Assembly (NCBI GenBank): GCA_028279805.1
Contig: JANQMZ010000007.1
Span: 390,001 to 422,000, forward strand
DNA from: an archaeon
GTDB taxonomy: Archaea > Iainarchaeota > Iainarchaeia > Iainarchaeales > JANQMZ01
Direction: 5' to 3'
DNA: 32,000 nucleotides
Both the position numbers and the translations under genes were made by a program. Below, one piece after another: positions 1,845 to 29,200 of this stretch (within the stretch, counting starts at the first letter, position 1; every line of letters begins with the position of its first letter). The notes under the pieces are model-generated. The model worked only from the letters and a program-made list of their open reading frames with translations. It did not search any database and was not told where the DNA came from.

Positions 1845-2741
1845 ATGGATGAAACAATTGCAAAAAAATACCAAAAAGCAGGCAAAATATTGAAAGAAGC
1901 ACAAGAAAAAGCCAAAAAAAAGGCTAAAAGTGGTGTAAATTTGCTTGAATTGGCTGAAACAATTGAAAAATTCGTAGAAAGTAAGGGCGCAAAACCGGCT
2001 TTTCCGGTTAATTTATCCACAAATAATAACGCAGCACACCAAACTCCGGCTTTAGGAGAAATGACTACGCTGCAAAAAGAAGATGTTGTAAAAATTGATA
2101 TTGGTGCGCATATTGACGGTTACATTGCAGACTCATCCTTTACATTAAATTTGTCAGGCGATTATAAAGATTTGATTAAAGCAACAGATGAAGCTTTGAA
2201 AAATGCAATAAAAGCAGTTGAAGATGACTTGGATTTGGGACAGACCGGAAAAATAATTCAGGATACAATTAAAAGCCACGGTTTCAATCCTGTTCAAAAT
2301 TTGTCAGGCCACGGACTAATGCGTTATATGCAGCATGCTCCTCCAAGCATTCCAAACATTGAAAAAAATGATGAACGCGGATTTGAAAATGACCATGTTT
2401 ATGCAATTGAACCATTTGCAACTGACGGAGTTGGATTTGTAAAAGAAGGAACTGTTTCAGAAATATACATGATTGAAGAAGAAAGAAACGTTCGCAATCC
2501 TTATGCAAGAAAAATTTTAGAATTTGTTGAAAAAGAATATCAAGGGCTGCCTTTTGCAGAACGCTGGTTACAAAAATTAAAATTAAGTGAATTTCAATTA
2601 AAAGTTGGGTTAAAATCTTTAATGCAGGAAAAAATATTGAAAAGTTTTCCAATATTGCATGAAGATCCTGGCAAAATTGTTTCACAATCAGAAAATTCTG
2701 TTTTAATTTTTGAAGAAAAAGTTATAACACTGGTGAAATAA
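1845..2741 (+). CDS. map: Methionine aminopeptidase, type 2 (short archaeal form)
   Basis: 298-aa ORF with AFPVNLSTNNNAAHQTP and DIGAHIDGYIADSSFT segments. The C-terminal helical insert is typical of archaeal MetAP2. Confidence 0.85.
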   Translation: MDETIAKKYQKAGKILKEAQEKAKKKAKSGVNLLELAETIEKFVESKGAKPAFPVNLSTNNNAAHQTPALGEMTTLQKEDVVKIDIGAHIDGYIADSSFTLNLSGDYKDLIKATDEALKNAIKAVEDDLDLGQTGKIIQDTIKSHGFNPVQNLSGHGLMRYMQHAPPSIPNIEKNDERGFENDHVYAIEPFATDGVGFVKEGTVSEIYMIEEERNVRNPYARKILEFVEKEYQGLPFAERWLQKLKLSEFQLKVGLKSLMQEKILKSFPILHEDPGKIVSQSENSVLIFEEKVITLVK

Positions 2742-2779
2742 AATGTGCCGCCGTAGATGAATCACACAAATTCTTGGAC

Positions 2780-2895
2780 ACGCGGGCTGACTCCCGCGAC
2801 ACGTCTGCGGGTGCTATCTAAAGATAGCACACAAATGCGCTTCAAAAGCGCCAGTCCCAGTGAAACTGGGGCGTTCATACGCGGAACACCGCGTT
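2780..2895 (+). ncRNA. GC-rich multi-hairpin module, copy 1 (immediately 5' of tRNA-Arg); unknown family
   Basis: Consecutive perfect hairpins: CGCGGG/CCCGCG 2781-2798 (alternative CCCGC 2793-2797/GCGGG 2807-2811), GTGCTATC/GATAGCAC 2811-2830, GCGCT/AGCGC 2837-2851, CCCAGT/ACTGGG 2856-2870, ACGCGG/CCGCGT 2879-2894. It shares strings with 10220-10325 and 14463-14572. Strand is assumed from the adjacent tRNA. Confidence 0.55.
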
Positions 2896-2967
2896 GGCCC
2901 TGTGGTGTAATGGATAGCATAAAAGCTTGCGGAGCTTTTGACTCGGGTTCGACTCCCGGCGGGGTCA
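2896..2967 (+). tRNA. tRNA-Arg (anticodon GCG)
   Basis: Hand-folded 72-nt cloverleaf. Acceptor GGCCCTG/CGGGGTC has 2 G-U pairs. D arm GTGT-AATGGATA-GCAT, anticodon arm AAAGC-TTGCGGA-GCTTT, T arm TCGGG-TTCGACT-CCCGG, discriminator A. Confidence 0.82.
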
Positions 2968-3006
2968 TTCAAAAACATTTTTTAATGCTGAAAACATATT
3001 TTTGGC

Positions 3007-4497
3007 ATGTTTATTCACATTACTTTTGATGATTTTAAGGCAGTTTTGCGTGATACGGGCATTATTCTAAAGTATTCATCTGTAATGTTTTTGATTCCTA
3101 TAATTTTATCCCTGTTTTTTCAGGAAGGGTTTGAAATTTTTTCATTTTATTTGGTTTCAGGTGTTATTGGTTTTTTGCTGGGAATTGTTTTGGAAAAATT
3201 GTTTGAAACAAAACTTGAAACAGATTTACAGCATGCTTTTTTAACAACAAGTTTGGCCTGGTTAATTTTTCCGGCTTTGGCTGCATTGCCGTTTTTTTTA
3301 ATTCAGAATATGTCTTTTGCAGATTCTTTATTTGAATCAATGTCAGCTTTAACAACAACCGGCTTGACTGTTATGGGGCATCTGATTGAGAATTCACCAA
3401 AAAGCCTGGTTTTGTGGAGAAGTTTTCTAAGCTGGATCGGAGGAATCGGCATTGTTGTTTTGGCTTCATTAGGATTGTTTGTTACTTATACTAAAGCTTC
3501 AAAATTAATTGTTTCGGAGGAAGGAAAAGAAAGGTTAAGGCCTAATTTGAAAAACAGTGTAAAACTTGTTTTCAAAATTTATTCAGTTTTAACAATTATC
3601 GGAATTGTGTTGTTATTTTTAAGCGGAATGACTTTGTTTCAGGCAATAAATTATTCCATGTCAGCAATTTCAACAACAGGAATGGATTTGACTTATGAAG
3701 GATTGGCAGCAACAAACAATTACTGGCAGCCTTTAGGCATTCATAATTACTGGGTTGACTTGAGTTTAATTTTTATAATGTTAATGGGAGCAACAGCTTT
3801 TTCTTTGCATTATTTGTTCTGGAAAAACAAAAACATTTTTGAATATTTTAAGGATCCGGAATTTAAAGTTTTAATTTTAGCTTCATTGGTTTCAGCATTT
3901 GCGGTTATTCCAAAGCTTGGAATTCAAAGTTCAATATTTCACGCAGTTTCTTCAATAACAGGCGGAGGTTTTTCGTTAATTTTACCTGAACAAATCGGGT
4001 TATGGCCAAGTTTTGTTTTGCTTGTTTTAACGGCAATAATGTTTATTGGAGGCAGTTCAGGTTCAACGGCGGGCGGAATAAAGATTAGCAGGTTTATTAT
4101 TTTTGTTAAAAGCATTTACTGGAAAATAAAGCAAACAATTTTGCCAGAAGAAGCTGTTTTTGCAAAAAAATTTGAAAAAAGAATAATAAAAGATTCTGAA
4201 ATAAAACAGGTTTTTCAGTTCATTGTTTTTTATGCTTTATTTGTTTTTTTGGGCGTTTTTGTCCTGACTTTTGAAGGATTTGAAATGAGCCAGGCTTTGT
4301 TTGAGGTTGTATCAGCTCAAAGCAATGTTGGAATTTCGGCAGGAATATCGGAACAAGGTTTGCCTTTGTTGTCAAAAACAATGTTGATTTTGAACATGTG
4401 GATTGGCCGTTTGGAAATTTTGCCTTTTTTCAGCATTGTTGGTTTTTTGCTTGCATTATTTTCAGGCAAAAAAGGAAAAGTTATATTAAACAATTAA
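3007..4497 (+). CDS. trkH: TrkH/KtrB-family K+ uptake membrane subunit
   Basis: 496-aa polytopic protein with repeated pore-loop-like segments (LTTTGLTV, ISTTGMD, ITGGGFS, GSTAGGIK). It lies directly upstream of trkA. Confidence 0.85.
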   Translation: MFIHITFDDFKAVLRDTGIILKYSSVMFLIPIILSLFFQEGFEIFSFYLVSGVIGFLLGIVLEKLFETKLETDLQHAFLTTSLAWLIFPALAALPFFLIQNMSFADSLFESMSALTTTGLTVMGHLIENSPKSLVLWRSFLSWIGGIGIVVLASLGLFVTYTKASKLIVSEEGKERLRPNLKNSVKLVFKIYSVLTIIGIVLLFLSGMTLFQAINYSMSAISTTGMDLTYEGLAATNNYWQPLGIHNYWVDLSLIFIMLMGATAFSLHYLFWKNKNIFEYFKDPEFKVLILASLVSAFAVIPKLGIQSSIFHAVSSITGGGFSLILPEQIGLWPSFVLLVLTAIMFIGGSSGSTAGGIKISRFIIFVKSIYWKIKQTILPEEAVFAKKFEKRIIKDSEIKQVFQFIVFYALFVFLGVFVLTFEGFEMSQALFEVVSAQSNVGISAGISEQGLPLLSKTMLILNMWIGRLEILPFFSIVGFLLALFSGKKGKVILNN

Positions 4498-8921: not shown

Positions 8922-9106
8922 CTAATTTTAAAAAAAAAGAAATCAATCTCAGAACTCATAATCGTCTTCATTTTCTATTGAATCAGCGCTCAGCCTGTTC
9001 TTCATAGATTGATTTTAATACATACGCAAATAAAATTAATATATTTGCCCTTTCATCGGAAAACCGCTTTGAAAATTCTTATTTAAAAATAAAACCAAAT
9101 AATAAC

Positions 9107-9799
9107 ATGTATGCTAGGGGAAAAAATGGTTGGTTTTCAATTAAAACAGCAAACAATCTTATAGAAAAACCAACTGAAGAATTAGCCGAATTTATTGGAA
9201 TTATGCTTGGCGATGGAAACATTCACGAAATAGATGGCAAAGGAATTTACCAAGTAAGGATAGCAGGACATAAAATTGATGATGCAGCATATTTTGATTA
9301 TTTAGAAAAATTGTTTATCAATCTTTTTGGAAAAAAACCTTCTTTTTATAAGTCAAAAAATAGAAAAACAATCTATCTTACGAAACAAAGCAAAGATGTT
9401 GTACACACTCTAAAACATTTTGGATTAATTCCAGGAAATAAAACAAAAAACAATTGTGGAATCCCAAGTTGGATTTTTTCCAATAATAAATTTTTGAAAG
9501 CTTGTGTAAAAGGACTTATAGATACTGACGGAAGTGTTTATCCCAAAACAAAAAAACACAAAACGCCTACAATTTACTTTACAAGCGCAATTCCAGAACT
9601 AAGACAAGATTTTAAAAAAGCTCTTCAGAACTTAAATTATAAATGCTCAAAATGGGTTAAAAAATCAGGAAAGGCAGCACAAGATTGTACAATTGGAGAT
9701 AGAGCAGAAGTTTTGAGGTACTACAGAGAAATAGGTTTTTCAAATCCAAAACATGAAAAAAGATTCAAAAAATTTTGGAAACTCGCCCTTGTAGTGTAG
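9107..9799 (+). CDS. Free-standing double-motif LAGLIDADG homing endonuclease
   Basis: Two LAGLIDADG motifs, FIGIMLGDGNIH and KGLIDTDGSVYP, about 105 residues apart in a basic 230-aa protein. The last 15 nt overlap tRNA-Glu. Confidence 0.85.
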   Translation: MYARGKNGWFSIKTANNLIEKPTEELAEFIGIMLGDGNIHEIDGKGIYQVRIAGHKIDDAAYFDYLEKLFINLFGKKPSFYKSKNRKTIYLTKQSKDVVHTLKHFGLIPGNKTKNNCGIPSWIFSNNKFLKACVKGLIDTDGSVYPKTKKHKTPTIYFTSAIPELRQDFKKALQNLNYKCSKWVKKSGKAAQDCTIGDRAEVLRYYREIGFSNPKHEKRFKKFWKLALVV

Positions 9800-10195: not shown

Positions 10196-10219
10196 CAATT
10201 ACAAAAACAATTAATAGAA

Positions 10220-10325
10220 ACGCGGTGTTCCGCGTGAGAACATCCGCCTTCGGCAGGATGTCCGAAGCAAAGCTTCGGAAGTGCCACTGAAAGTGGCACG
10301 CGGAGTAACCGTACGCAATCGGTTC
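10220..10325 (+). ncRNA. GC-rich multi-hairpin module, copy 2 (apparent 5' leader of tRNA-Thr-UGU)
   Basis: Hairpins: ACGCGG/CCGCGT 10220-10235, ATCCGCC/GGC(A)GGAT 10242-10259, TCCGAAGC/GCTTCGGA 10261-10279, GTGCCACT/AGTGGCAC 10281-10299, AACCG/CGGTT 10307-10324. Alternative closing helix: CCGCGTG 10230-10236 with CACGCGG 10297-10303. Confidence 0.55.
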
Positions 10326-10398
10326 GCCTCGGTAGCTCAGTGGCTAGAGCACTTGCCTTGTAAGCAGGGGGTCGCGAGTTCGAATCTCGCTCGAGGCT
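10326..10398 (+). tRNA. tRNA-Thr (anticodon TGT)
   Basis: 73-nt cloverleaf: acceptor GCCTCGG/TCGAGGC (identical to the GGT isoacceptor), anticodon arm CTTGC-CTTGTAA-GCAGG, T arm GCGAG-TTCGAAT-CTCGC. A T-run follows. Confidence 0.9.
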
Positions 10399-12686: not shown

Positions 12687-14321
12687 TTAAGAATAAGCCC
12701 AGCGTTTTTCACTTTGTTTTTTTTGTTTAGGGCTAACACCATGTTCCGTTTTTTCCCAGTAATGCGGGTTAAAAAACAATTGATAAGCAGCTTTAAGAGT
12801 TGCCAAAGCCATTAAAAGCCAGTAAACAGGAATAAGCAAAGACCATTTTGCAACGCCTTTTTTGTCTTTAACAAAAGGACCCCAGACATGCAGCAAAACA
12901 AACAAGGAATTTCCAACAATTAAGGAAATCCAGCCCAAGGTTAATAATGGTTCGGGAAACATTTGCGCAATCACGCCTGACCGGGTTAAAAGCCATGTTA
13001 TGGCCATTGCCCAGAAAATCAGGTTTAAAATATGGGTTATGGGTGTTCCGCCAATGATGAAAATAAATGTAAACAAGCCTCGCCAGGAATAATCCCGGAT
13101 TGTTTGAATCGGGTGCCTGAAATGAACCAAAAAAGTTTGCATGAACCCTTTAACCCATCTTGACCTTTGGTTAATCCAGCTGCTTAAAACACTATTACTT
13201 TCTTCCAAGGTAATAGAATCAAACATTCCGACTCCGTATTTGTTGCCCTGTGTTTTTGTTGAAATGCTTTCCTCCCAAGTGGTTGATTCCATAACAGCAA
13301 TATTATAACCCAATCTGGATAAACGCATTCCCAGATCAGCATCCTCTGTAACATTATAAGGATCCCAGCCTCCTACTTCCCTCAAAACACTTGTTCTAAA
13401 ATGATTAGATGTTCCGCCCAAAGGAATTGGCAAATTTAAAACATGCAAACCGGGCAAAACATATTCAAACCAAACAGTGTATTCAGCTGTAAACCATTTG
13501 CTTAACAAATTTTCATGCGGATTATAAAAATTTAATTTTGCCTGCAAAGTAACAGTGTTTTCACCCAACTGGTTAAACAGCCAGACAGCTTTCTTTAACT
13601 GATTCGGTTCAGGAATGTCCTCGGCATCATATATTGCCAAAAAATCTCCTTTTGCTTTCATTAAGCCAACATTTAACGCTTTTGGTTTTGTTTTAGGATG
13701 AGAATCAGGCAAAACAATAACATCATATTCCGGTCCCATCAAATCTTTTACATTTTCAACAGCCTGAATTGTTTCCTTGTCATTTTCTTCCAACAACAAT
13801 TTAATATCCAGTTTTTTTCGAGGATATTCCAACCTGTTTAAAGCTTTAATTAAAGTTTTCATAACCCCCGATTCTTTGTAAGCTGCAACCATTACCGTGT
13901 AAATGGGCAAATCTTTGTCTTCCATTGCAACCAAATCAGCTTCAGTCGGATTTGGAACACCTTTTCTTACAGATAAATAAAAAACTAATGCTTTGAAAAA
14001 AATTGTTAAAAAATAGAACGCCATTGCAAAAACAACAAACAAAACACCAAAACTTAAACCTGTTAAAATTTTTACACTAAATAAAGCCAAAGCCAAAACA
14101 AGCAAAAAGAAAACAGCTAATTCTTTTGTTTCCCTGTGAAAAGTTTTTTTTGCACTAATTTTATCATGAATAAACAAATAGTCGCCTTGATGATTCAAAT
14201 CATATTTTGTCAAATAATGCTCATGAGTTTTGGTAAAATGCAAACTATTCTGAATTTTTTTTTTAAAACTTTTACGGGTTTCTTTTGCTTTTTTCTTAAA
14301 AACTGCAAGCATTCCAATCAC
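12687..14321 (-). CDS. Membrane-embedded processive family-2 glycosyltransferase (cellulose/chitin/PNAG-synthase-like)
   Basis: N-terminal TM helices, then a GT2 core with MVAAYKE, YDAEDIP, and QRSRWVKG (QxxRW), followed by C-terminal TM helices. Confidence 0.85.
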   Translation of the reverse strand: MIGMLAVFKKKAKETRKSFKKKIQNSLHFTKTHEHYLTKYDLNHQGDYLFIHDKISAKKTFHRETKELAVFFLLVLALALFSVKILTGLSFGVLFVVFAMAFYFLTIFFKALVFYLSVRKGVPNPTEADLVAMEDKDLPIYTVMVAAYKESGVMKTLIKALNRLEYPRKKLDIKLLLEENDKETIQAVENVKDLMGPEYDVIVLPDSHPKTKPKALNVGLMKAKGDFLAIYDAEDIPEPNQLKKAVWLFNQLGENTVTLQAKLNFYNPHENLLSKWFTAEYTVWFEYVLPGLHVLNLPIPLGGTSNHFRTSVLREVGGWDPYNVTEDADLGMRLSRLGYNIAVMESTTWEESISTKTQGNKYGVGMFDSITLEESNSVLSSWINQRSRWVKGFMQTFLVHFRHPIQTIRDYSWRGLFTFIFIIGGTPITHILNLIFWAMAITWLLTRSGVIAQMFPEPLLTLGWISLIVGNSLFVLLHVWGPFVKDKKGVAKWSLLIPVYWLLMALATLKAAYQLFFNPHYWEKTEHGVSPKQKKQSEKRWAYS

Positions 14322-14425: not shown

Positions 14426-14608
14426 CCCGCCTTAGCATAGTAGCCAATGCGCTCGGCTGTAGACTCCCGCCTGACCGCGGGAAAAGGTCGTGTCACTTTC
14501 GGTGACACTGGCGCTCTTTGAAGCGCAAAACCGGTTAAATCCGTTTTAGGATTGAAACAGCGCATGGCAGTAACCGAGAGATCCCCGGTGCAAGTCCGGG
14601 AGGCGGGA
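14426..14608 (+). tRNA. tRNA-Tyr (anticodon GTA) interrupted by a 110-nt intron at the canonical 37/38 site
   Basis: Exon 1 is 14426-14462: CCCGCCT-TA-GCAT-AGTAGCCA-ATGC-G-CTCGG-CTGTAG. Exon 2 is 14573-14608: A-CCGAG-AGATC-CCCGG-TGCAAGT-CCGGG-AGGCGGG-A. CTGT (32-35) can pair with GCAG 14567-14570, leaving 3-nt bulges AG|A and TA|A, as expected for a bulge-helix-bulge (BHB) site. Confidence 0.85.
14463..14572 (+). ncRNA. tRNA-Tyr intron = GC-rich multi-hairpin module, copy 3
   Basis: Hairpins: TCCCGC/GCGGGA 14465-14482, GTGTCAC/GTGACAC 14490-14508, GCGCT/AGCGC 14511-14526. It shares strings with copies 1 and 2. Confidence 0.8.
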
Positions 14609-14681
14609 CTTAGCCTATTATTTGGAGATGGCGATACATTTAAATAAACGACCGACTAATCAGTCTATTGGTGATACTGAA

Positions 14682-28324: not shown

Positions 28325-29200
28325 ATGGATAGGGGCGTTCCTAAAAAGTTTTTGCCGGCGGCAGCTGTTTCGCTGGTTATACTTGTTTTGGTCATTTCAG
28401 GACCGGCTTTTGCTTTTACAATTGTTGACTGGTCTGCTGACCCGGGAACGACAACACGAAATAATGAAATAGAAATACTTGTAAGAATTTCACAGGAAGT
28501 TGATGAAGTTCTTGACACTATTCAGCTTGAAATAACTGATCCGAATGGTGACAAATTTTTTGCAACTCTTGATAGCTGTGAGTCTGTTGGATTCAGTGAT
28601 GACGGTTCAGGAAATGTTACAGGACCGGGATATGGTTATGGTTATCTGGGTTACGGTTCTGCTTTTGGTTACGGTTATGGGTATGGATATGGTTATGGTT
28701 CAAGTTTTGGAACCAATGACCCGATGATTTGTAAATTTACTTATTTTGCAACAACTCTTGGAGACCATGACGGAGAATTGTTTATCAACGGAGTTCCATT
28801 CGGAACAGAGGAAGATTTGTTTGAAATAATTCCAGCCACACAAAATGGTTCCTCAGACAATCCACCTGCAGGCACAAGCCGCGGAGACCAAGGTGGTGGA
28901 GGCGGAGGTGGCGGAACACCGCCTGGAACAGATTCTGATGGAGGAGAAGAAGGTGCAGGAGGCGCACCTGAAATTGAACCGGAAGAACAGGAAGTAACAC
29001 CTGAAGCAATAGCAGGAACAGGAGGACCAACTGGATTTTTCGGATTGGGAGACCTTGACTTGGGAGAATTAATGGATTCATTAACCGGATTAATTAATTT
29101 AGGCGGACTGGATTTGAGTTCAAGCGGACTGCCATGGTTCTTTTTAATACTTTTAATTCTGGGACTATTGTACAGGTATTATACTACAAGAGGAAACTAG
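28325..29200 (+). CDS. Secreted, C-terminally anchored surface protein with Gly-Tyr repeat and poly-Gly/acidic linker
   Basis: The track ORF is trimmed to ATG 28325. Signal peptide MDRGVPKKFLPAAAVSLVILVLVISGPAFA, GYGYGYLGYGSAFGYGYGYGYGYG block, G8 run, acidic TPE-rich linker, then a final TM helix LPWFFLILLILGLLY followed by a short RYYTTRGN tail. Confidence 0.6.
   Translation: MDRGVPKKFLPAAAVSLVILVLVISGPAFAFTIVDWSADPGTTTRNNEIEILVRISQEVDEVLDTIQLEITDPNGDKFFATLDSCESVGFSDDGSGNVTGPGYGYGYLGYGSAFGYGYGYGYGYGSSFGTNDPMICKFTYFATTLGDHDGELFINGVPFGTEEDLFEIIPATQNGSSDNPPAGTSRGDQGGGGGGGGTPPGTDSDGGEEGAGGAPEIEPEEQEVTPEAIAGTGGPTGFFGLGDLDLGELMDSLTGLINLGGLDLSSSGLPWFFLILLILGLLYRYYTTRGN
28628..28710 (+). repeat. 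Imperfect tandem GGTTAT/GGATAT hexanucleotide repeat encoding (Gly-Tyr)n
   Basis: ggatatggttatggttat...ggttacggttatgggtatggatatggttatggt is read directly from the sequence. Confidence 0.8.

Follow-up and report, generated by a model that had tools for sequence, protein, structure and literature searches.

Inverted similarity between a 110-nt tRNA-Tyr intron and hairpin arrays upstream of two other tRNA genes in an archaeal tRNA cluster

In the 32-kb stretch of archaeal DNA analysed here (the window), a tRNA-Tyr(GUA) gene is interrupted by a 110-nt intron that is related to two GC-rich islands lying immediately 5′ of other tRNA genes, namely tRNA-Arg(GCG) (mod1, 150 nt) and tRNA-Thr(UGU) (mod2, 107 nt). 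The relationship is significant only when the intron is compared with the reverse complements of the two modules, and an inverted relationship of the same kind recurs in a second lineage. We give an even chance to the explanation that hairpin cassettes residing in the removable parts of pre-tRNAs have been exchanged and inverted within the genome at the DNA level. On this genome itself, the analysis covered the window.

Similarity between the tRNA-Tyr intron and two upstream hairpin arrays

Local alignments were scored against dinucleotide-preserving shuffles (n = 300). The intron aligned with the reverse complement of mod1 with a score of 36 (z 9.4; shuffle maximum 24) and with that of mod2 with a score of 27 (z 5.5; shuffle maximum 23), and mod1 aligned with the reverse complement of mod2 with a score of 36 (z 9.5); in none of these three comparisons was any of the 300 shuffles as good. 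The direct comparisons gave scores of 17 for the intron and mod1 (z 0.7; 76 of 300 shuffles as good), 13 for the intron and mod2 (z -0.8; 262 of 300), and 19 for the two modules (z 1.9; 17 of 300). An earlier, sequence-only reading of the window had described the intron and the modules as built from one hairpin set. The sharing is beyond chance, but it holds in the reverse-complement orientation only and not for a sense copy.

In the inverted alignments, four hairpins follow one another in the same order, their spacers match (UG/CA), and their loops are complementary. Intron hairpins b and c with the intervening UG correspond to the reverse complement of mod1 hairpin D, CA, and hairpin C (28 of 34 positions identical), and the reverse complement of mod2 displays, in intron order, counterparts of b (18/21), c (loop CUUUG), and d (CAUCC...GGAUG). 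A 23-nt segment, GTTCnnACGCGGAACACCGCGTT, closes mod1, and its reverse complement opens mod2 (mod1 hairpin E and mod2 10220-10235; 21/23 identical); no further copies of this type were found in the 32 kb or in 168 loci, except for one hairpin in the related locus L041. Where the stems differ between copies, both strands change together while the loops and spacers are kept (GUGUCAC/GUGACAC versus GCCCCAG/CUGGGAC), indicating that the hairpin structure is what is maintained. Hairpins a and E are alike, both having the form CGCGG...CCGCG, and a direct hairpin a together with inverted b, c, and d would make mod1 and the intron differ by an interior inversion between these palindromic hairpins, which recombination could produce simply. 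Inverted copies carrying flanking exon were also considered (the reverse complement of the mod2 3′ end against Tyr exon 1, and that of the mod1 5′ domain against Tyr exon 2) and were dismissed as non-significant (z ≤1.7).

Both modules fold far better than their shuffles (z -5.2 for mod1 and -5.05 for mod2), and hairpin E of mod1 stops one base before the +1 position of tRNA-Arg. Each module starts approximately 22-25 nt after a promoter-like motif (AAAAG-TTATAA or AAAAGC-TATTTAAA) that resembles the motif upstream of tRNA-Tyr, and for this reason we read mod1 and mod2 as the probable 5′ leaders of tRNA primary transcripts. The regions upstream of the other four tRNAs and of tRNA-Tyr are short and AT-rich. 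All three GC-rich hairpin arrays of the window lie within tRNA transcription units, and the remaining GC islands are tRNAs or coding sequence; the latter include an island at 28843-28994 that has a 12-nt match to hairpin E and turned out to encode a Gly-rich segment. No Rfam family matched the modules at the gathering threshold, and at E ≤10 only tRNA, tRNA-derived cross-matches, and noise were found (mascRNA-menRNA, E 0.0092; Plastid-ycf2, E 1.9e-05, below its gathering score).

The split and tri-split tRNAs of Nanoarchaeum equitans and Caldivirga maquilingensis also have GC-rich complementary segments at separate loci beside tRNAs, as do the end of mod1 and the start of mod2. They differ from the present case in that all three tRNAs here are complete and no halves are present; the mod1 5′ region does not fold as a tRNA half, and no bulge-helix-bulge (BHB) motif was found at the leader-tRNA borders.

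The sequence-only reading had proposed that the Tyr intron, together with a few flanking exon bases, had landed 5′ of tRNA-Arg and tRNA-Thr in the sense orientation. The strings on which this proposal relied do exist: GGCTG (2785-2789) is fused to ACTCCCGC (2790-2797) in mod1, GGCTG-TAG-ACTCCCGC occupies 14455-14470 in the tRNA-Tyr gene, and AGTAACCG occurs at both 10304-10311 and 14569-14576. These junction matches are what the direct alignments pick up. In post hoc windows centred on the junctions they are somewhat unusual (p ~0.002-0.08), since 1-21 of 500 shuffles, depending on the scoring, were as good for mod1 and 18-42 of 500 for mod2. When Tyr exon 1 and hairpin a together were aligned directly and colinearly with the 5′ domain of mod1, z was 2.3-3.7 (3-34 of 1000 shuffles as good), and a short sense-oriented relation of hairpin a to mod1 is possible. 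The exon part by itself, however, shows no specificity for Tyr: the Tyr 5′ exon scored z 0.7 against mod1, and the 5′ halves of other tRNAs scored higher (Arg 1.8 and Glu 2.0). The exon origin of the shared bases is therefore unproven, the matches being weak, the whole-sequence direct alignments being at chance (z 0.7-0.9), and other copies lacking the matches.

Intron transposition among tRNA genes has been proposed for Thermoproteales (PMC4090602, PMC4033280). There, as in the window, similar non-coding inserts are found across the tRNA genes of one genome, implying spread at the DNA level. The Thermoproteales introns, however, are sense-oriented and near-identical in different tRNAs, each with its own splice motif, whereas the relatives of the Tyr intron are 5′ leaders that are inverted, have no splice motif at their borders, and occupy old host positions. 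The pattern here looks more like exchange or conversion than fresh insertion. A BHB motif scan over the loci revealed no convincing motif at the borders of either module. Structured leaders stand at the same tRNA genes in distant relatives, and the orthologous leaders in the loci L041, L020, and L007 have no junction similarity; the leaders are older than the divergence of these lineages. Modules at orthologous positions that lack junction similarity are what the sequence-only reading had itself named as refuting its proposal, and a recent dispersal of the Tyr intron into tRNA 5′ flanks together with exon bases fails on this point. Because the shared part is inverted, simple intron transposition at the RNA level (of the reverse-splicing type) is ruled out. 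With the strong similarity inverted and the direct alignments at chance, we regard sense transposition as very improbable.

The tRNA-Tyr gene and its intron

ARAGORN and Rfam at default settings found six tRNAs in the window, all on the + strand, and both missed the tRNA-Tyr gene. When introns were allowed, ARAGORN reported a tRNA with a 110-nt insert at 14426-14609 (spliced tRNA, 74 nt), placing the insert at 35/36 and labelling the gene Asn(GTT). The placement is ambiguous because GUA lies at the end of both the exon (CUGUAG|) and the intron (CAGUA|). The gene is tRNA-Tyr(GUA) with its intron at the canonical 37/38 site, as had been read from the sequence earlier. This assignment is based on the helix and bulge geometry, on the C1-G72 pair, discriminator A73, and 5-nt variable loop, which we take to be identity features of archaeal tRNA-Tyr and not of tRNA-Asn, and on the orthologue in the syntenic locus L025, whose exon bases are identical at 68 of 73 positions (93%) and whose 94-nt intron lies unambiguously at 37/38. 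The window thus contains seven tRNAs, each a complete gene (ARAGORN with and without introns), and the tRNA-Tyr intron is the sole intron that ARAGORN found in it. The coordinates of the gene and of the two modules are listed in Table 1.

Table 1. Coordinates of the tRNA-Tyr gene, the two modules, and the adjoining tRNAs and motifs
Feature	Position	Strand	Evidence	Remarks
Putative promoter, BRE/TATA-like (B recognition element/TATA box) motif GAAAAAGTTATAACA	2715..2729	+	Read from sequence, inferred	~22-25 nt 5′ of mod1 start
mod1, probable leader of tRNA-Arg(GCG)	2746..2895	+	Folding	9-bp P1 2751-2759/2802-2810 around hairpin a 2781-2798
mod1, later hairpins	B 2811-2830; C 2837-2851; D 2854-2872; E 2879-2894	+	Folding	Loop of D, UGAAA
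tRNA-Arg(GCG), intronless	2896..2968	+	ARAGORN, Rfam	
BRE/TATA-like motif AAAAGCTATTTAAA	10182..10195	+	Read from sequence, inferred	24 nt 5′ of mod2 start
mod2, probable leader of tRNA-Thr(UGU)	10219..10325	+	Folding	First hairpin 10220-10235; d 10240-10261; c 10262-10278 (loop CAAAG); b 10281-10299 (loop UGAAA)
mod2, closing helix	10222-10233/10300-10312	+	Folding	Around three hairpins
mod2, terminal hairpin	~10307-10324	+	Folding	Adjoins tRNA +1
tRNA-Thr(UGU)	10326..10398	+	ARAGORN, Rfam	
Similar BRE/TATA-like motif AAAAGCTTTAAAA	14383-14395	+	Read from sequence, inferred	5′ of tRNA-Tyr
tRNA-Tyr(GUA) 5′ exon	14426..14462	+	ARAGORN, L025 comparison, sequence	Positions 1-37; C1; anticodon GUA 14459-14461
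Splice motif, 5′ side	14452..14463	+	MFE (minimum-free-energy) fold, motif scan	H1 CUCGG 14452-14456; H2 CUGU 14457-14460; bulge A-G|A 14461-14463; cut after 14462
110-nt intron	14463..14572	+	ARAGORN, folding, motif scan	Canonical 37/38
Splice motif, 3′ side	14567..14578	+	MFE fold, motif scan	H2′ GCAG 14567-14570; bulge U-A|A 14571-14573; H1′ CCGAG 14574-14578; cut after 14572
tRNA-Tyr 3′ exon	14573..14608	+	ARAGORN, L025 comparison	Positions 38-73; 5-nt variable loop; discriminator A

In the MFE fold of 14452-14583, the 5-bp anticodon stem (CUCGG/CCGAG) is prolonged by a 4-bp helix (CUGU/GCAG). The Tyr intron shares with canonical archaeal BHB tRNA introns the 37/38 site, the anticodon stem followed by a 4-bp helix, the 3-nt 3′ bulge (UAA), and cuts after the second bulge base. 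It differs from them in its length, in its four independent hairpins, and in the outer helix beyond the 5′ bulge (AGA), which has only about 1 bp (the bulge opens into a junction) or is replaced by an alternative GAC/GUC pairing. The BHB geometry proposed earlier is accordingly canonical in H1, H2, and the 3′ bulge but not in the outer helix, and because of this short helix the splice motif is, as modelled, of a relaxed (bulge-helix-loop) type. Endonucleases of DPANN archaea with an L3 loop are associated with more tRNA gene disruption, and such loop inserts have been linked to broad substrate specificity (PMC5829648). By analogy, a relaxed motif would fit lineages of this kind; no splicing endonuclease gene was found among the proteins of the window. 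A naive scan for BHB motifs produced thousands of chance matches and was informative only at the Tyr site.

In addition, the 3′ segment of the intron, AGCGCAUGG (14556-14566), is complementary to CCAAUGCGCU in exon 1 (14444-14453; the 3′ strand of the D-stem into the anticodon stem), and in the MFE fold of the entire precursor this pairing replaces the cloverleaf.

The intron consists of hairpins a (14466-14481), b (14490-14508; loop UUUCG), c (14511-14526; loop CUUUGA), and d (14537-14553) and a tail (14554-14572); hairpin b was also recovered independently in a search for YGAAA-loop hairpins. The description of the intron as highly structured overstated its folding: on its own it is moderately structured (z -2.3 against shuffles), and z reaches -3.3 when the anticodon arm is included. 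Its length was likewise said to be unusual. Archaeal tRNA introns range from 11 to 129 nt with medians of 12-25 nt (PMC4090602, a 2014 review), and 110 nt is thus long for archaea generally. It is not exceptional within the lineage, where 56 of 171 predicted tRNAs in 160 related loci have an intron, 13 of the 56 introns are at least 70 nt, and the longest is 110 nt. The long introns include those of tRNA-Arg(GCG) (72-83 nt or more in eight loci), tRNA-Glu(CUC) (76-79 nt), and tRNA-Thr(GGU) (110 nt in L007). The tRNA-Tyr intron is kept at 37/38 in L025 (94 nt) and L064 (52 nt). Despite the similarity of the exons, the Tyr introns of the window and L025 cannot be aligned (z -0.6).

The tRNA-Trp intron of euryarchaea, which contains a box C/D RNA, is similarly a long structured intron that exceeds the needs of splicing. 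Unlike that intron, the Tyr intron has no C box (RUGAUGA) and no C′/D′ box set within 14463-14572, merely stray CUGA and GAUGA strings; the intron region has no snoRNA-type Rfam match, and the sequence is not conserved among orthologues. A likeness of hairpin d and the bases that follow it (AAAUCCGUUUUAGGAUUGAAAC, 14537-14558) to CRISPR repeats with ...AUUGAAAC or GAAAC endings was followed up and set aside: the Rfam CRISPR-DR matches had non-significant E values of 1-3, no CRISPR array was found in the window, and strings of the AAAUCCGUUUUAGGAUUGAAAC type occur only singly in the related loci.

Two further observations concern introns of the relatives. The tRNA-Arg(GCG) intron of L025 (2690-2740) contains two adjacent hairpins with exactly complementary loops, CACGAC-AUAAA-GUCGUG and GCGCCAC-UUUAU-GUGGCGC, which possibly form a kissing pair or represent a local inverted duplication. 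ARAGORN with introns allowed labels several intron-bearing tRNA-His(GUG) genes as tRNA-Tyr (L017, L051, L052, L098, and L144), just as it labels the tRNA-Tyr of the window as Asn, because short repeats at the intron borders permit alternative placements of the intron. Automatic anticodon calls on intron-bearing DPANN tRNAs therefore need manual checking.

Leaders and introns in related loci

Relatives were gathered by HisRS-anchored scans of genomes and metagenomes, which yielded 160 DPANN loci. The closest HisRS relatives are DPANN metagenome-assembled genomes (Iainarchaeum, Forterrea, Woesearchaeota, and Nanoarchaeota), with identities of at most 67% overall and of 41-48% on all long contigs; three proteins of the window had no exact counterpart on record in public assemblies. 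Structured leaders precede the same genes as in the window, namely tRNA-Arg(GCG) in L041, L020, and L007 and tRNA-Thr(UGU) in L007. In L041, an intronless tRNA-Arg(GCG) lies behind a multi-hairpin leader of about 130 nt. One hairpin of this leader, with a UGAAA loop, is identical together with its preceding A to mod2 10280-10299 (hairpin b and its 5′ A; 20/20) and aligns with mod1 hairpin D via compensatory changes. As in mod1, a terminal hairpin ending ...GCGUU|G comes next. The tRNA-Arg leader of L020 has the same arrangement in another covarying version, hairpins D and E thus being kept with compensatory changes in both loci. In L007, tRNA-Arg, -His, -Met, -Glu, and -Thr(UGU) are all preceded by leaders. 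Of 178 tRNA upstream regions, 10 fell below the 1% quantile of the background folding energy, and these were concentrated in the window, L005/L007, L014, L020, and L041. Near tRNAs, YGAAA-loop hairpins with stems of 6 bp or more show strong enrichment: 10 of 56 matches fell in leaders or introns, which by a rough estimate make up less than 2% of the sequence.

The leader of the L041 tRNA-Arg also contains in its 5′ half (3958-3973 and 3999-4014) two hairpins with the same loop, CAACA-GUAGAU-UGUUG and GACA-GUAGAU-UGUC, and GUAGAU is found in the P1 helix of mod1 as well (2753-2758). In L014, a duplicated 5′ fragment of tRNA-Met (12927-12960; about 20 nt identical from TGTCGCTGTAGATCAGCAGTT and then diverging) lies about 115 nt 5′ of the full tRNA-Met (13076-13150), and a promoter-like AT box and a three-hairpin leader are located between them.

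The second lineage in which an intron is related to leaders by inversion is that of the Iainarchaeum-like loci L007 and L005. The 110-nt intron of the L007 tRNA-Thr(GGU) matches the reverse complements of the Arg (z 4.3), Met (3.6), Glu (6.3), and Thr(UGU) (3.3) leaders and matches none of these directly (highest direct z 2.4, Glu leader). The leaders of L007 and L005 match each other directly, with z up to 20, and share a near-identical terminal element (UUUUCGCC-GGCCUUU...AAAGGCC) abutting the tRNA +1. L005, the closest relative, has a nearly identical tRNA-Thr(GGU) without this intron, and other relatives have no intron or one of 18-32 nt at the site; on these sequence comparisons, the intron appears to have been gained or expanded recently from leader-type cassettes. 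In a systematic scan at z >4, the intron-leader pairs were two in the reverse-complement orientation and none in the direct one, and the leader-leader pairs were seven direct and two inverted.

The terminal element itself, UUUUCGCC(A/G)GCCUUU-loop-AAAGGC(C), ends most leaders of L007 (Arg, Met, Glu, and Thr(UGU); 3479, 6343, 8332, and 12861) and the Met and Glu leaders of L005 (12365 and 17153), 0-1 nt before the tRNA +1. The position of this conserved hairpin, directly against the 5′ processing site, suggests that it plays a part in 5′-end maturation or is constrained by it.

The strong, conserved local structure and the sequence-identical hairpin in distant genomes would also be expected if the modules were functional small RNAs hosted by the tRNA genes (for example, a guide RNA or a fragment of a larger essential RNA such as RNase P RNA or signal recognition particle (SRP) RNA) and freed by tRNA-processing enzymes, for which the box C/D RNA in the euryarchaeal tRNA-Trp intron is a precedent (PMC4090602). 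The distribution at tRNA-Arg(GCG) would fit one cargo in alternative positions: none of the eight genes with a long intron has a structured leader, their upstream regions being unstructured, compared with four of the 13 intronless genes. This exclusivity is, however, only a trend, and the tRNA-Glu of L014 has both an intron and a structured leader. Hosted RNAs are further disfavoured by the lack of any Rfam family beyond noise at E ≤10, by the missing C box, by orthologues that cannot be aligned, and by the orientation of the intron copy, which is antisense to the leader copies and so cannot encode the same RNA. We consider this explanation quite improbable. The strings UAGAUGAAU and ACAG...GGC were considered as possible signs of an RNase P or SRP RNA fragment, and this idea gained no Rfam support at E ≤10. 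Three other approaches were not productive. The possibility that mod1 is a homologue of the tRNA-Arg(GCG) intron of L061, left 5′ of a re-formed intronless gene, was rejected (z only 2.6, with no match to the intron of any other relative). Work on a covariance model for the two-hairpin unit was stopped because the MAFFT alignment put the stems out of register in two of five sequences, and a model of a single hairpin would merely have duplicated the regex search. A scan of viral contigs for the conserved hairpin gave eight matches, all in coding DNA with no tRNA nearby and at about the chance level by a rough estimate.

Proposed exchange of hairpin cassettes and its alternatives

We propose the following course of events for the exchange of cassettes. 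The tRNA-Tyr intron is predicted to be removed by the tRNA splicing endonuclease at the relaxed BHB motif, and the mod1 and mod2 leaders would be removed by a 5′-end processing enzyme. The hairpin arrays would be confined to these cut-away parts of the pre-tRNAs and, for that reason, be tolerated by an otherwise compact genome with a GC content of 32%. They appear to be old at their host genes and yet to have been repeatedly homogenised, copied, and flipped within each genome, presumably by gene conversion or recombination between palindromic hairpins. Since each hairpin is its own inverted repeat, a block copied or flipped in either direction still folds. Exchange at the DNA level would account for the reverse-complement match between intron and leaders, for the apparent mosaic of mod1 (a direct first hairpin, an inverted interior, and a terminal hairpin), for the contrast between orthologous introns, which cannot be aligned across genomes, and paralogous modules, which are alike within one (the 28/34 and 21/23 segments), and for the Thr(GGU) intron of L007.

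Several observations weigh against this proposal. The 20/20 hairpin is shared between the tRNA-Thr leader of the window and the tRNA-Arg leader of L041, whose HisRS proteins are only about 46% identical, and together with the constant loops on covarying stems it resembles the outcome of selection on a particular RNA element more than it resembles neutral filler. The YGAAA-loop hairpins are in the sense orientation in five of six cases in leaders and in the antisense orientation in three of four cases in introns, a bias that exchange in random orientation does not predict, although few hairpins are involved and they come from lineages that are not independent. Terminal duplications, a transposase, and other signs typical of mobile elements were not identified. 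The HisRS-anchored scans yielded no close relative on a long contig (the highest identities were 67% on a 2.3-kb contig and 56% on one of 1.6 kb), and for this reason events of gain, loss, or conversion at the window cannot be dated or polarised. Finally, the transcription starts and processing sites are positions that we infer.

The orientation bias would be better accommodated if the antisense relation were functional. The Tyr intron, either as part of the pre-tRNA or once excised (perhaps as a circle), would then be a trans-acting partner of the 5′ leaders of other pre-tRNAs, its loops starting kissing complexes (UUUCG with UGAAA, and CUUUGA with UCAAA or CAAAG) that open or mark the leaders, and the 5′ processing of tRNA-Arg and tRNA-Thr would be coupled to tRNA-Tyr splicing. 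An intron that is the reverse complement of leaders is present both in the window and, independently, in L007/L006, the loops show full complementarity even though the stems differ, and the UGAAA hairpin is kept across distant genomes. The predicted heterodimers are more stable than the monomers by 20 (intron and mod1), 8 (intron and mod2), and 25 (mod1 and mod2) kcal/mol, and their duplex energies are better than those of 198-200 of 200 shuffles. Such stability, however, is an automatic consequence of reverse-complement similarity. Where intron hairpin b and mod1 hairpin D differ, each hairpin is preserved and the intermolecular duplex is broken, only one of the five mismatches being wobble-compatible; one intron segment would need to pair with both leaders, and the orientation pattern rests on effectively two to three independent lineages. 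We thus regard a functional antisense pairing in the window as unlikely. The same applies, with slightly more reserve, to its general form, in which long introns in at least two DPANN lineages would be antisense copies of other pre-tRNAs' leaders that pair through hairpin loops, making splicing a regulator or chaperone in trans of 5′ maturation. If the antisense relation were functional, it would represent a new layer of tRNA-processing control and an RNA-RNA network among pre-tRNAs; we know of no earlier description of such a network.

A miniature mobile element with hairpin terminal inverted repeats, of the MITE (miniature inverted-repeat transposable element) or REP (repetitive extragenic palindrome) kind, that inserts in either direction into tRNA leaders and anticodon loops would account for the GTTCnnACGCGGAACACCGCGTT segment that ends mod1 and begins mod2 as its reverse complement (z 9.5), for the ends of mod2 that pair as a closing helix, and for copies in both orientations. 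Traces of mobile elements also exist in the same tRNA cluster, namely the LAGLIDADG open reading frame (ORF) and the tRNA-Met fragment described below. Nevertheless, no target-site duplications, transposase, or further copies were found in the 32 kb, the hairpins within one module are all different, and, in contrast to recent insertions, the leaders persist with covarying stems at the orthologous tRNA genes of distant lineages. The scan of viral contigs, which gave only chance matches in coding DNA, adds no support, and we find such an element improbable.

Palindromic GC-rich repeat clusters are known in AT-rich genomes, examples being the bacterial REP sequences and interspersed mosaic elements (BIMEs) and the GC clusters of yeast mitochondria. 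Like them, the arrays described here consist of short GC-rich hairpins clustered outside the coding sequence of an AT-rich genome, are found in both orientations, and show homogenisation within the genome. In contrast to them, the arrays are confined to parts of tRNA transcripts that would be excised, each hairpin is different, and the stems covary in an RNA-like manner. To our knowledge, no transposase is associated with hairpin arrays of this kind.

The proposed exchange of cassettes between leaders and introns bears on the origin and turnover of archaeal tRNA introns, which is an open question. The prior sequence evidence known to us is limited to the sense-oriented sharing in Thermoproteales and the leader/intron similarity of split tRNAs. 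The present findings tie introns to long structured leaders of complete tRNA genes via inverted hairpin blocks, in two DPANN lineages. In one of these, L007 has a 110-nt intron that consists of leader cassettes, and its nearest relative, L005, lacks that intron. This offers a concrete, testable route for the growth or gain of introns by DNA-level exchange. The results also flag the structured tRNA leaders of DPANN archaea as a feature that merits experimental study.

The surroundings of these genes are AT-rich and archaeal in character, with a GC content of about 32% across the window, and its proteins include a family B DNA polymerase, HisRS, a DUF2666 protein, and a LAGLIDADG protein. The order Arg(GCG)-His-[HisRS]-Thr(GGU)-Met-Glu-Thr(UGU)-Tyr is common to the window and L025, and L061 has the same order as far as its contig reaches. 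Between tRNA-Met and tRNA-Glu, the window contains a free-standing ORF for a LAGLIDADG endonuclease (9107-9799; Pfam LAGLIDADG_3 and LAGLIDADG_2), the stop codon of which falls within tRNA-Glu (start 9785). The corresponding gap in the syntenic L025 is only 170 nt, and the ORF therefore looks like an insertion into the tRNA cluster. About 30 nt 3′ of tRNA-Met, at 8950-8966, lies the fragment CAGAACTCATAATCG, which includes an exact 10-mer (ACTCATAATC) of the tRNA-Met anticodon arm. This fragment may be a remnant of a partial tRNA duplication, for example, an integration scar beside the LAGLIDADG gene.

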